Origin: Chiloscyllium plagiosum
Lineage: Eukaryota
Direction of reading: 5' to 3'
NCBI RefSeq assembly: GCF_004010195.1
Contig: NC_057719.1
Coordinates: 9,711,112-9,775,111 of the forward strand
Length of the DNA stretch: 64,000 nt
Notes under the pieces: generated by a model
Seen by the model: only the letters and a program-made list of their open reading frames with translations
What the model was told of the DNA's origin: nothing
Databases searched by the model: none
Program-made: the position numbers and the translations under genes
In this document: in pieces, positions 2,292 through 25,817 of the stretch
Position numbering within the stretch: position 1 is the stretch's first letter
Layout: every line of letters starts with the position of its first letter

Positions 2292-2430
2292 CTGCAGAGA
2301 CAGAAATGAAAATGGCTTTCAGTTAACGTAATTGGGCTTCCCCCCATCTGAGGGGATGTCAATTTCTTGTCTTTCAAGCTAAAAGAATTTACAATTTTTT
2401 AAACAAAAAGGTACTCCCCACTGTAGTGAT

Positions 2431-3248
2431 TGTAACAAGGTCAGCAGGGAAGACCTTATAGAATATGAGTTCCCTGAAGAGAGTTTATAGTCTTAGGGTA
2501 AGGAGCAGCAAATTTAAAACAGAGTTGAGGAGAAACTGCTTCTCCCACAGGGTTTTAAATCTGTGGAATTCACTACCCCAAATTGTGACGGATGCTGGGA
2601 CAGTGAGTAAATTTAAGGAGGAGTTAGACAGATTTTTAGTTGGGAATGGGTTGAAGGGTTATGGAGAGAAGACAGGAAAATGAAGGTGAGGAGCATATCA
2701 ATGATCGAATGGAGGAGCAGATGTGATGGGCTGAATAGCCTAATTCTGCTCCTATATCTTATAAACTTATGATTGGGGCTGTTAATCTGGTCCAATCAGC
2801 GAGCCCTATCTGACAGATATAAACAGGAATGTAGGTGGGTAGGGGCGGGCTGCCTTAGAATGATCAGAAGGTGGGAGGGGTGTGGGCTTGCTGGGTCTGT
2901 ATTGTCTGCACTTTTGTGTGTAACAGTATTGTCTAATGTACAAATGTCATTGTCACTGTCTTGTCATATGTGGAACTGGGATTTGAGGTTTGTCCTCATC
3001 TCCCTGTAAAGTGGTTGAATGGTAGGGTTTGGGGCCTAGCTTTGCTGCTCCTCTCCCTTGTAAAATTGCTGTCTCTTGTGTACAGCTGTAAATGTTTTTT
3101 GTAAACTGTTTTGTAATTTGTTTAATAAAATAAAATAAACAGGAATGTCAGAGCTTCTGTTCACTGAAGAAGGTGAGTCAGTATCATGTATTATGTCTGT
3201 CTAAATAAATGGTGATTTGGTGATGAAATATTTTATGGAGTTATGTCA
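2431..3248 (+). mobile_element. Short solo-LTR-like element, interrupted by a CR1 3' fragment (~2478-2770) and a poly(A)-tailed insert (2833-3134)
   Basis: TGTAA...TCA termini; CCAAT, TATAAA and AATAAA motifs in order; homologous to 21432-22190. Confidence 0.6.
2833..3134 (+). mobile_element. 5'-truncated L1/Tx1-like 3' end
   Basis: GT-rich tail ending aataaaataaa; exact 14-bp TSD ataaacaggaatgt (2819-2832 / 3135-3148). Confidence 0.6.
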
Positions 3249-3659
3249 CCCATGAATGATGTTTCATAGCAGGATGAGATTGCAACACCCAAGAAAAGCT
3301 TATGACCCATGCATGTTTATTCTCCTTTTCACATTCAACGTAACAAGGGAGCATTGTGCGTCTATGGGTTTTTGTTCTGAAAGACTAGACTGCCAGGTGG
3401 CTCATGTCCAAATTCTGCACAACAATCAATGAGGAAGAGGACCAATTTCACAGAGTCCTCTTCCTCACTGATTGTGGTACAGTGGTCTGGGTTGGACCAG
3501 CACGCTGAAGAGGTCAATTACTGTTTATTTTATATTTCAGGTCTATGCAGAGATGATACAAGTTTTAGTGTGTATAAATTATTTGATTCACAGAGCTTTA
3601 AAATATCTGCTCCATGCTGCTACTCTGGCTTCCAATTTTTAAGAAGACAAATGTTACAT

Positions 3660-14350: not shown

Positions 14351-14461
14351 TTTTTTTCCAGCTCTCAGAGTGAACAGAACCTCTGACACTCCTGATTTTT
14401 TTTAAACCCCCACACTACCGCCTAACTGCAGTAGTGCTTATTGTTTTCCCCAGCACCCATG
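14351..14461 (-). mobile_element. Tx1-like 3' terminus with transduced LTR-like flank and oligo(A)
   Basis: Reverse complement matches 21958-22024, then caggagtgtcagaggttctgttcactctgagagctgg (cf. 22062-22098), then A7. Confidence 0.8.
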
Positions 14462-19775: not shown

Positions 19776-21069
19776 CGATGGATCACATCAAAAATTCATG
19801 ATCCATTATTCAATGCAGTTATTAACTTATTTAAGTGTTTCGTTCACTCAGCAGGTAAGCAAACAAATGTGGGCACGTTAACCTGTACCCAGTGTAATTT
19901 CAACATGTATGAAATTTAAAAGACTTACAGCTAGTAGCAGGAGACAAATACTGACCCTCAGAGACTAGAATAGGCTCCAAGGTTCAGTGCACACAATGGT
20001 ACAACTTGACAAACTTAACCAGCAATTGCAGATCATCCACTCCATCTAGCTCCAGGACATCAATAAAGATGTGATGTTCAGATGTCAGCCCTGAAGGAGA
20101 GTCATACCAGACTTGAAACGTTAACTCTGTTTTCTCTCGCAAAGGTGGTGCTGAGTTTCTCCAGCATTTCTGTGTTTGTTTCAGATTTCCAGCATCCAAA
20201 GTCCATAAAGGTGTTAGACCTCAGCTCTTACTGTCATCCATTACACTTAAACCAACAGCAATGAGGCTAGTTTTAAAAGAGAGATCTTTTATTTAACCTC
20301 TGAGCTCAATCAATGGTAGAAAACATCCAGGAGGATAGTGGAAAGTGATAACCTTAGAATCATACAACATGGAAACAGACTCTTCAGCCCACTCATTCAT
20401 GTTGACCCAGTTTCCTAAATTGAACTAGTCCCATTTTTCTGTATTCGATCCATATCCTTCTAAAGCTCTCCTATTTATGTACCCGTCTAAATGTCTTTAA
20501 TTGTTGTGATTGTACCCGCTTCCAACCTCTCTTCTGGCAGCTCGCACATACACACCACCCTCAGTATGAAAATATTGCCCCTCAGGTCCCTTTCAAATCT
20601 TTCCCCTCTCACCTTCAACCTATGCCCTCTAGTTTTGGATTCCCCTACCATGCTTTGCTATTCACCTTACCGATGCCCTTCGTGAATTTATACACAGTGG
20701 AGCCAGTGGATCGATAATTGCAGCACACCAATGGTCACAGGCCTCCAACCTGAACAACAATCCTCTACCAGCACTCTCTCTCTCTCTCCTACCATCAAGC
20801 CAATTCTGTGTCCAGTTGGCTCTCTCTCTGTCCTCAAAGCATCCCTGAAGAGGTCAAACACCTTCACTGCACCAGGGGAGTCACTTCCCTGTGACCGATC
20901 AAACTGGAGGACGTTCATCTGTCAAGGCACCCAACGCATTGGGAAATTTCAGCAGGTAGGTGCAGGAGCAAAGCTGAGATGTGGTAGGGAGAGAGCAAAT
21001 TTTGTGCGAAGATTTGTAGCTCGGGTGCTCGTTGTTGTGGTTCTGTTCGCCGAGCTGGAAATTTTTGTT

Positions 21070-21109
21070 GCAAACGTTTCGTCCCCTGGCTAGGCGACAT
21101 CATCAGTGC
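21070..21109 (-). ncRNA. Minimal type I hammerhead ribozyme motif (mirror copy, sense to the neurexin pre-mRNA)
   Basis: Exact reverse complement of 21267-21306. Confidence 0.75.
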
Positions 21110-21266
21110 TTGGGAGCCTCCTGCGAAGCGCTTCTTTGATGTTTCCTCCGGTGTTTATAGTGGTCTGTCCCTGCCGCTTCCGGTTGTTACAACCGGGAGC
21201 GGCAGGGACAGACTACTATAAATACCGGAGGAAACATCAAAGAAGCGCTTCGCAGGAGGCTCCCAA

Positions 21267-21306
21267 GCACTGATGATGTCGCCTAGCCAGGGGACGAAAC
21301 GTTTGC
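21267..21306 (+). ncRNA. Minimal type I hammerhead ribozyme motif
   Basis: GCA-CUGAUGA-U-GUCGCCU(AGCC)AGGGGAC-GAAA-CGUU-UGC: stem I GCA/UGC, stem II 6 of 7 bp, self-complementary ACGU at stem III. Confidence 0.75.
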
Positions 21307-21431
21307 AACAAAAACTTCCAGCTCGGCGAACAGAACCACAACAGAGAGCAAATCTCCAAATGAGCCAACCCTTCAAGCAACACCTTCCCCACACCTGGCA
21401 GAGACTGCAGGTTGTGCACTGTACATTAAAC

Positions 21432-22190
21432 TGGAATAAATACAGCCAGATGGACATAATAGGAGTTCCCTGACTGGGTTGTTAATCTGGTCCTATCAGG
21501 GAGCCCTGGCTGACAGATATAAACAGGAGTGCTGAAGACTTCCTCGTGGGTCTGCTCCTGGGCCTGGCCAAACTGGCCATAAACAGGTCCAGGCAGCGGG
21601 CCGTGGAGGGAGTCAATAGGGCTGACTGCCTGCCCCTCTTCCTCAGTTACGTTAGAGCCCGGGTATCCTTGGAGAAGGAGCATGCGGTGCCCACCAACAC
21701 CCTGGAGTTGTTCAGGGAGAGGTGGGCACCGCAAGGAGTGGAGTGTATTATTTCCCCCTCCAACTCTATTTTGATTTAATCCCTGCCCTCCCCTTCACTG
21801 TTTGATCACACAGCATTGACCTTTGATGCGAAGGGCACTAACTTGTCACTGGCCACTCGGGTGTTTTCGTATCTTCCTGGTGGTGGAAAATGAATAAAGA
21901 TTCATGCACCTTGTGTCTCTCACTGTGTCTCACACCTACACACACACACACACACAACATGGGTGCTGGGGGAAAAATAAGCACTACCGCAGTTAGGCGG
22001 CAGTGTTGTGGGGGTTAAAAAAAAATAAACAGGAGTGTCTGAAAAAAGAGAGAAAAATAAACAGGAGTGTCAGAGATTCTGTTCACTCAGAGAACTGGCT
22101 CTGAGGGAGCCAAACCAGTGTCAAGTCATATGCACGTGTAAATACAGGGTGACCTGGTGATGGGATACCGGCCTCTGTGGAGTTATTTCA
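21432..22190 (+). mobile_element. Second copy of the short solo-LTR-like element, interrupted at its TATA box
   Basis: gagttccctga...gttaatctggtcc...ctgacagatataaacagg...ttctgttcact...ggagttatttca is shared with 2431-3248. Confidence 0.65.
21532..22056 (+). mobile_element. Tx1-like LINE 3' end (ORF2 C-terminus, 3' UTR, poly(A))
   Basis: LLLGLAKLAINRSR...YVRARVSLE...FRERWAPQG resembles L1/Tx1 ORF2 C-termini; 13-bp TSD ataaacaggagtg (21519-21531 / 22057-22069). Confidence 0.8.
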
Positions 22191-23129: not shown

Positions 23130-25288
23130 GAACATATTAGAACATAGAACATTACAGCAAAGCATAGGCCGTTCAGCCCGCAATTTCGCGCCAAACTATG
23201 AAACCAATCTGAAGCCCATCTAACCTACAGTATTCCATTATCATCCATATGTTTATCCAATGACCATTTAAATGCCCTTAAAGTTGGCAAGCCCATGACT
23301 TTTGCAGGCAGTGTGTTCCACACACTTTCTACTGAGTAAAAAAAGGCTCTCCCTGTCCACCCCATCTAACCCTCTGATTATCTTATATGTCTCAAATAAG
23401 TCACCTCTCAACCTTCTTCTCTCTAATGAAAACAGCCTCAAGTCCCTCAGCTTTTCCTCATAAGACTTTCCTCCATATCAGACAATATCCTGGTAAATTT
23501 CCTCTGAGCTCTTTCCAAAGCTTTTACATCCTTCCAAAAATGTGGTGACTAGAATTGTAAGCAATACTCCAAGTATGGCCACACCAGTGTTTTGGACAGC
23601 TGCAGCATGACCTCGTGGCTCCAAAACTCAATCCCTCTGTGAATAAAAGCTAACACACCGAATGCCTTCTTAATAAACCTATCAACCTACGTGACAAATT
23701 TCAGGGATCTATTTACATGACACCGAGATCTCTCTGTTCATCTACACCTGCAACATCCTTCAGCACTGTCCACAACTCCACCGACCTTAGTGTCATCTGC
23801 AAATTTACTAACCCATCCTTCCATGCCCTCATCTAGGTCATTTATAAAAATGACAAACAGCAGTGGCCCCAAAACAGATCCTTGCGGTACACACGAGGAA
23901 CTGAACTCCAGGATGAACATTTCCCATCAACCACTCTACCCTCTGTCTTCTTTCAGTTTGCCAATTTCTGATCTAAAACCACTAAATCACCCTCAACCCC
24001 ATGCTTCCATATTTTGTGCAATAGCCTACCATGGGAAACTTTATCAAATACCATACTGAAATCCACATACACCACATCAACCACTTTACCCTCATCCACC
24101 TGTTTGGTCACCATCTCAATGAACTCAATAAGATTTATGAGGCATGACCTACCCTTCACAAAACCATGTTGACTATCCCTAATCAATTTATTCCTCTCTA
24201 GATGATTATAAATCCTATCTCTTATAACCTTTTCCAACACTTTACTTACAACCAAAGTAAGGCTCACTGGTCTATAGTTACCAGGGTTGTCCCTACACCT
24301 CTCCTTGAACAAGGGGATAGCATTTGTTATCATCCAGTCTTCTGGCAGTATTCCTGTAGATAATGACGACATAAAGATTAAAGCCAAAGGCTCTGCAATC
24401 TCCTCCCTGGCTTCTCAGAGAATCTGAGGATAAATCCCATCCGGCCCAGGGGACTTAGCTATTTTCATGCTTTCCAGAATTGTGAACACCTCCTCCTTGT
24501 GAACCTCAATCTCATCTAGTCTCAGCCTGTATCGCAAAATTCTCCTCCACAACATAGTATTCAGACTGGAAAAAGACAAACAAAAAATATTCATTTAGTG
24601 CTTCCCCTATCTCCTCAGACTCCATGCACAACCTCTCACCACTGTCCTTGATTGGCCCTAATTTTTCCCTAGTCATTCTTTTATTCCTGATATACCTATA
24701 GAAACGTTAGGGTTTTCCTTGATTCTGTCTGCCAATGCCTTCTCGTGTTCCCTCCTGGCTCTTCTTAGCTCTCTCTTTAGGTCCTTCCTGGCTAACTTGT
24801 AACTCTCAAGCACCCTAACTGAGCCTTCACATCTCATCCTAACGCAAGCCTTCTTCTTCCTCTTGATAAGAGATTCAACTTCCTTAGTAAACCACGGCTC
24901 CCTTGCTCGACCATTTCCTCCCTGCCTGACCGGTACATACTTCTCAAGGACACGCAGTAGCTGTACCTTGAATAAGCTCCACATTTCAATTGTGCCCATC
25001 CCCTGCAGTTTCCTTCCCCATTCTCTCCATCCTAAATCTTGCCTGATCACATCATAATTGCCTTTCCCACAGCAATAACTCTTGCCATGCAGTATATACT
25101 TATCCCTTTCCATTGCTAAAGTAAACATAATTGAATTGTGGTCACTATCACCAAAGTGCTCACCTACCCCCAAATCTAACACCTGGCCGGGTTCATTACC
25201 TAGTACCAAATCCAATGTGGTCTCGTCCCTTGTTGGCTTGTCTACATACTGTGTTAGGAAACTGTCCAGCACACACTGGACAAAAACT
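23130..25288 (-). mobile_element. CR1 LINE, 5'-truncated (endonuclease to 3' tail), same family as 8752-12036
   Basis: [35 protein letters not shown] and FADD fragments. Confidence 0.92.
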
Positions 25289-25817
25289 ATATTGATCGGG
25301 TTACAGTTTGTGAGGCATGGAGGAAGCTCATGCCGAGTATAGCTTTTGGGATTAACCAGATGAGCTGAATGGCCTGATTCCAGGTAAAAAAGGAGATTTT
25401 AGATTTAGATTCAGATTTTATTGTCACATGGACTCAGGAGTACAGTGAAAAGTGACTAATGTCGTTCCGCACGGCGCTATCGTAGGTACAAAGGTTACAA
25501 GGTACAAAAAGGTCCCAATGTGGTCTCGCCCCTTGTTGGCTTGTCTACATACTGCGTTAGGAAACCGTCCAGCACACACTGGACAAAAACTTTATTGATC
25601 GGGTTACAGTTTGTGAGGCATGGAGGAAGCTCATGCCGAGTATAGCTTTTGGGATTAACCAGATGAGCTGAATGGCCTGATTCCAGGTAAAAAAGGAGAT
25701 TTTAGATTTAGATTCAGATTTTATTGTCACATGGACTCAGGAGTACAGTGAAAAGTGACTAATGTCGTTCCGCACGGCGCTATCGTAGGTACAAAGGTTA
25801 CAAGGTACAAAAAGGTC
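25212..25817. repeat. Tandem duplication, 2 x 303 bp
   Basis: 25212-25514 and 25515-25817 differ at 4 positions by my count. Confidence 0.95.

Follow-up and report, generated by a model that had tools for sequence, protein, structure and literature searches.

A truncated Tx1-clade LINE in the TATA region of an old Gypsy-type LTR of Chiloscyllium plagiosum, from a family probably aimed by an upstream CCAAT box and probably transcribed from the LTR promoter

How a LINE with an APE-type endonuclease finds its insertion site, and how it is transcribed there, can be addressed at the base level by a family of which one truncated copy lies in the window, the 64,000-nucleotide stretch of the Chiloscyllium plagiosum genome analysed here (NC_057719.1, positions 9,711,112 to 9,775,111). 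The reading considered probable is that the TATA box of an old Gypsy-type LTR serves this Tx1-clade LINE as an insertion site, always entered in sense orientation. The LINE is likely guided to its A-rich nick site by a CCAAT box lying 27-29 bases further upstream, and it likely uses the LTR promoter. The distance between CCAAT and nick is constant in this family, the head derives from target sequence, and the stacks preserve the sequence of insertion events and point to 5' joining by homology.

The insert in the window (21532-22056, 525 nt) corresponds to the 3' portion of a 5'-truncated Tx1-clade LINE and is flanked by a 13-nt target-site duplication, ATAAACAGGAGTG, at 21519-21531 and 22057-22069, overlapping TATAAA at 21518-21523. 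Its host is a Gypsy-type solo LTR of ~230 bp, which spans 21420-22190 together with the insert. The limits of the insert, the duplication over the TATA box, the extra target copy and the second A-rich tract, all described in an earlier note on this DNA, were verified in position. The same note had started the element at 21432; the host LTR was confirmed, but it begins nearer 21420. The features are as follows.

21420..21531, + strand: LTR 5' half (start approximate), with a mutated CCAAT box at 21492-21496, reading CCTAT, and TATAAA at 21518-21523
21519..21531, + strand: target-site duplication, 5' copy (13 nt)
21532..21779, + strand: end of a Tx1-like ORF2 (81 C-terminal codons at 21534-21776, stop codon at 21777-21779)
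21780..22018, + strand: LINE 3' UTR, ~90% identity to the nearest other copies
22019..22025, + strand: first A tail, which with the next TAAA gives AATAAA at 22024-22029
22026..22041 (22026-22039 in the first reading), + strand: extra target copy, likely a 3'-transduced remnant from the target site of a donor
22042..22056, + strand: second A-rich tract, read from the window sequence
22057..22069, + strand: target-site duplication, 3' copy (13 nt)
22070..22190, + strand: LTR 3' half, with an initiator-like motif near 22084-22090 and a terminal CA

The ORF2 fragment in the window is 41% identical to the Xenopus Tx1 ORF2 over 64 aa (E 3e-10). Walking upstream in the same genome yielded an element of ~7 kb, which comprises a long 5' UTR with GC-rich repeats, ORF1, ORF2 and a 240-nt 3' UTR. 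ORF2 was matched to the Xenopus Tx1 ORF2 (UniRef YTX2, P0028) with 53% identity over 830 aa and 68% in the RT part, and the match to human L1 was far weaker. An N-terminal APE-type endonuclease (PF03372, E 4e-6, over cut-off, in copy L178) and an RT domain (PF00078, E 5e-35) were detected. The C-terminal zinc finger (PF13966, E 2e-5) scored 25.3 bits against a cut-off of 27.5, with Tx1 itself at 21.9. A separate ORF1 lies upstream of ORF2 (frames in L184 and L178); it gave no match in a Pfam search, and a Cys/His knuckle was recognised by eye. With its endonuclease and RT domains and its RT identity, the LINE is assigned by protein similarity to the Tx1 clade (L1 group), in agreement with the earlier note. 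Copies end in a poly(A) tail, and duplications of 10-20 nt, mostly 13-17 nt, were found at 53 sites, typically starting within TAAA. The mechanism proposed here starts from this ~7-kb element, which has ORF1, endonuclease and RT and makes 13-17-nt duplications starting in TAAA. The nearest copies, among the best-scoring matches, are 97-99% alike, which indicates recent activity of the family.

The host LTR is a ~230-bp repeat with TG...CA ends that contains CCAAT, TATA, an initiator-like motif and AATAAA. An initiator-like A is located at +30 in 21 of 37 empty LTRs. Because the repeat sits downstream of integrase-like remnants in 17 of 19 loci and is preceded by a purine tract in L094-L096, it was classed as a Gypsy-type LTR; the TG...CA ends and the integrase-like sequence bear out the LTR-like host of the earlier note. 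The match to the integrase domain (rve) was weak (E 0.009, under cut-off). Internal copies of the host retrotransposon are only 69-74% alike over the full query, so it is regarded as old and decayed. No clear 4-5-nt host duplication flanking the LTR was seen in the five copies inspected. The LTR is very abundant (4774 first-look candidates in the genome search). Another copy lies in the window at 2423-3250 (+), with its 5' part split by an unrelated insert; its TATA site holds a non-coding poly(A) element, at 2833-3135, which is flanked by a separate duplication.

The target core followed 85 of 148 LINE tails in the family, and 44 of these 85 had a further A tract behind it. Some remnants differ from the local target (L003, L021), others stand at off-LTR sites (L010, L020, L028, L029, L030, L111), and the same remnant recurs in two loci (L008, L029). 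In the window, a short off-LTR LINE tail (14358-14460, - strand) carries ~38 nt of target and downstream LTR sequence with a second A tract. Remnants that are unlike the local target, off-LTR or recurrent show that 3' transduction from donors residing in the target takes place in the family. Its transcripts extend beyond the A tail into target sequence and receive a new tail, which leaves an extra target copy; the window insert presumably arose likewise. The suggestion in the earlier note that the donor already sat in the same target holds for the family, in which remnants are passed on, and is likely only for the window locus, where the extra target copy quite probably represents 3' transduction from a donor. 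The extra copy could instead be the trace of an earlier bare A-tail insertion at the site, not a donor flank, a possibility to which we give a clearly smaller chance. Repeated insertion at one site is usual in the family, and because the local target is the common variant, the two origins look alike; against a bare A tail, a mismatch separates the extra copy from the adjoining flank at the 15th base (TG versus AG), and transduced remnants of 6-30 nt are frequent. AATAAA, formed by tail and target, was considered as a signal setting remnant length and was unsupported, lengths being alike with and without it (18 versus 26 cases).

A second young family (L250-L274; 95-98% identity) has internal ~100-nt repeats and no Tx1 protein match within its loci; 8 of 24 loci are immediately preceded by an LTR 5' half, and others carry target remnants. 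It is likely a non-autonomous passenger.

At least two units were present in 35 of 94 groups. Neighbouring units diverge by 6.6%, and in all but one of 35 pairs a copy at another place is at least as close as the neighbour; on that count, DNA duplication and re-insertion of local RNA were ruled out as the source of the stacks. A common 5' truncation point was found in 42 of 71 neighbouring pairs, compared to 5.5% between loci. Judged by nearest relatives, 19 of 24 arrays have the younger unit first; markers give this order in 20 of 28, the opposite order in 4 and a tie in 4. Within loci the first 30 nt differ by ~4%, versus ~10% between loci, and the gap narrows further in. By these comparisons stack neighbours are classed as independent insertions and stacks as growing at their 5' end. 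Each insertion preserves the 5'-most target beside the CCAAT box, so that newer copies land ahead of older ones. The new cDNA may then be completed by annealing to homologous sequence immediately 3' of the nick; such pairing would account both for the same truncation point in neighbours and for the seamless joining of an LTR-like head to an empty LTR; in a stack, the new copy would pair with the resident copy, at a target still preceded by CCAAT. Among the stacks, a complete tRNA-Met(CAT) is inserted at the target in L011 (1379-1450, - strand), and L025 contains a decayed tRNA-like piece. An identical short unit and junction follows different LINE copies in L108, L120, L183, L186 and L289, which suggests that the downstream neighbour of a single donor has been transduced repeatedly.

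Heads of full-length copies were classed by their opening sequence. Thirteen of 51 distinct heads open with LTR sequence from downstream of the target, followed by a TG-expanded, element-specific continuation (class 1); in 32 the LTR-derived core is preceded by a stretch of 3' sequence from the LINE itself, 30 to >900 nt long, and 6 were unclassed. In 11 of the 13 class-1 heads the LTR sequence runs on unbroken from the target, and the other two begin at +23 and +30. Insertion takes place between TATA and initiator, so a class-1 head re-creates the order CCAAT-TATA-initiator before the LINE. Because full-length copies begin with the LTR's downstream sequence and rebuild the TATA-initiator order, the LINE likely uses the LTR promoter; for the promoter borrowing suggested in the earlier note, the LTR-derived head provides good structural support. 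Many full-length copies are located behind younger tailed units. In the one informative RNA run (X19), which was poly(A)-primed, depth over the 3' UTR was sense-biased (648 versus 21), a bias that oligo-dT priming on genomic tails could explain, and no start pile-up was listed.

It is rather unlikely that the LINE has a promoter of its own, either in the GC-rich 5' UTR repeats or in the 3' UTR, driving the next copy as in HeT-A/TART, and that the LTR-like head is a captured fossil aiding only 5' joining. Such a promoter would suit the long, repeat-rich 5' UTR, the 32 heads placed behind the LINE's own 3' sequence and the LTR 5' halves, found within 1.5 kb upstream in only 12 of 30 head loci and missing there in the remaining 18; HeT-A provides a precedent (text compared of PMC5537684). 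The upstream 3'-sequence piece, however, is 87-96% identical to the copy's own 3' UTR and no nearer to it than to other copies, which is not what a perfect non-terminal repeat would give; 5 of 18 such pieces begin exactly where an older downstream unit begins; and the two class-1 heads that are not joined to a local LTR start at +23 and +30, near the predicted start. A TART-like perfect non-terminal repeat was ruled out by the same identities.

Site preference was scored from both the LINE side and the LTR side. In each search the best 40 candidates were scored and 29-30 loci taken, so that samples consist of close copies (top BLAST hits) and are not random. For 18 of 29 sampled LINE copies, an LTR half in the same orientation was found no more than 1.5 kb away, and wider fetches raised this to 20 of 29; an LTR 3' half alone beside a LINE copy can be a transduced piece and not the host LTR. 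In a fresh set (n = 29), 16 copies were in the LTR site (15 by script and one degenerate LTR by eye), 6 were off-LTR, 2 were antisense near the LTR 5' end and 5 were unplaced. Both shares (20/29, 16/29) exceed the >20% of copies flanked by one repeat type used as a criterion by Kojima (text compared of PMC4494074). When LTRs were instead selected by their 5' half, 12 of 29 proved to be occupied at the TATA spot, 9 by this LINE, 2 by a second, non-coding family and one by a CR1-like 5' end (four of the 12 classed by eye). This last is in L066, where from about 1590 (+) the 5' end begins exactly at the LTR target site; its motifs suggest a CR1-like element. Antisense insertions near the LTR 5' end (L327, L337) mark a possible second, minor site.

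Tabulation of 3' flanks, a check suggested in the earlier note, showed that 13 of 29 other copies have the target core behind their tail, versus 4.3% of shuffled flanks and 2 of 54 window A-tracts. That the motif belongs to the LINE's own 3' UTR was ruled out, since it is present in empty LTRs but missing from the off-LTR copies L002, L026, L027, L112 and L132. In a pooled, LINE-biased set of 94 LTR halves, 40 were followed by LINE sequence, and all 40 junctions were in sense orientation, as the earlier note had proposed for the family. Counted from the first T of TATA, the LINE begins between +10 and +19 in 33 of these junctions. About 30% of placed copies are off-LTR. The sequence-specific family of the earlier note is therefore upheld as a strong preference for the LTR site and not as a strict one.

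What aims the insertion was examined at off-LTR sites with a CCAAT window set by the LTR's own CCAAT-to-nick spacing of 29. From 33 candidates in a first set, 6 were dropped by eye (doubtful duplication or degenerate LTR) and 27 kept (13 of the LINE, 14 of the second family). A CCAAT start 27-29 nt before the nick with at most one mismatch was present at 11 of the 27 (mean of distant windows 1.77, maximum 5), and an exact CCAAT at 4 (mean of distant windows 0.18); the peak was confined to the forward strand. Six fresh off-LTR sites, three of them read by eye, gave 2 exact CCAAT boxes and 4 misses, and all 3 sites resolved by script were without CCAAT at this spacing. Pooled, 13 of 33 sites had CCAAT with at most one mismatch and 6 an exact one (p ~1e-7), and in 20 of 33 it was absent at the spacing. 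The preference seems to depend on an upstream CCAAT box and an A-rich nick site, not on TATA or CAGGAG as such. In the proposed mechanism, site choice follows CCAAT at a fixed distance, a statistical pattern whose presumed cause is recognition of the box; its reader may be the host CCAAT factor NF-Y or a protein of the element itself.

An endonuclease that reads the local TAAACAGGAG, as in Xenopus Tx1L, with no role for CCAAT, would also produce real targeting. The Tx1L endonuclease is sequence-specific in vitro (text compared of PMC1950540), the target core stands behind 85 of 148 tails, and most off-LTR duplications begin with TAA or AAA. We nevertheless consider this improbable: off-LTR duplications have little in common beyond the A-rich start, LTR loci without CAGGAG are still repeatedly targeted (L003, L016, L021, L022), internal target copies within stacks are bypassed for the 5'-most one, and the CCAAT peak appears at off-LTR sites. 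Mere accumulation, with generic A-rich insertion and better survival or duplication within LTRs, would fit the off-LTR copies and the abundance of the LTR but is largely refuted and very improbable, as junctions are confined to a 10-nt window in 33 of 40 cases and are all in sense, stacked units are not each other's nearest relatives, and young copies (97-98% alike) show the same LTR bias.

With CCAAT as the probable guide, a wider and tentative picture may be drawn by analogy. A vertebrate LINE would be steered by host NF-Y to a fixed spot between CCAAT/TATA and the initiator. Its own promoter would have been given up, and the LTR initiator region would be carried as a plug-in head, which would both finish integration through homology and restore the promoter, the family living off thousands of dead-LTR promoters. 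Ty3 and TRE5 provide the analogy for transcription-factor-guided, promoter-renewing retrotransposition, which here would take place at RNA polymerase II promoters.

Tx1 families preferring LTR retrotransposons are already known, namely Tx1-8_Crp and Tx1-4_AMi of the crocodilian Tx1-Mar group (Kojima 2015, PMC4494074), and tandem sequential insertions and possible flank-driven transcription are reported in the same paper. In its text as compared, Tx1-8_Crp and Tx1-4_AMi are given no LTR position, TATA/CCAAT link or target-derived head, and figures S3-S6 may hold such detail. Heads of crocodilian Tx1-Mar are U1/U2 snRNA (PMC4494074); those of the shark LINE are LTR-derived. Tx1L of Xenopus laevis resembles the shark LINE in its layout of endonuclease, RT and putative zinc finger (under the Pfam cut-off in both) and in targeting another transposon (PMC4494074, PMC1950540). 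In the portions compared, its target is the DNA transposon Tx1D, cut by a strictly specific endonuclease; that of the shark LINE is an LTR core promoter with partial specificity, and off-site copies track CCAAT. R2 in 28S rDNA has its promoter outside the element (PMC2881922, text compared), as proposed for the shark LINE. In HeT-A/TART the promoter lies in the upstream neighbour of head-to-tail arrays (PMC5537684, text compared), comparable to the shark stacks. Both systems, as far as these texts describe them, belong to other clades and use other targets; the shark LINE differs in the 5' match to sequence downstream of its site and in a promoter that would come from a third-party, decayed element.

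No account of a Tx1 LINE at an LTR TATA box, of CCAAT- or NF-Y-guided LINE insertion or of a target-derived head was found in the literature covered, a coverage to which Repbase Reports and most subscription journals do not belong. Should a host promoter factor guide the LINE, the family would represent a natural design for position-specific insertion; should the LTR preference alone hold, it would be a tidy further example of an already reported habit.

Two further repeats were noted in the window. Upstream of the LTR, a 325-nt palindrome (21026-21350) with 162-nt arms, 96% complementary, belongs to a dispersed repeat, which we assume may represent inverted Penelope-type ends. At 25212-25814, a 300-nt tandem duplication is 99% identical and may be recent or an assembly artefact.
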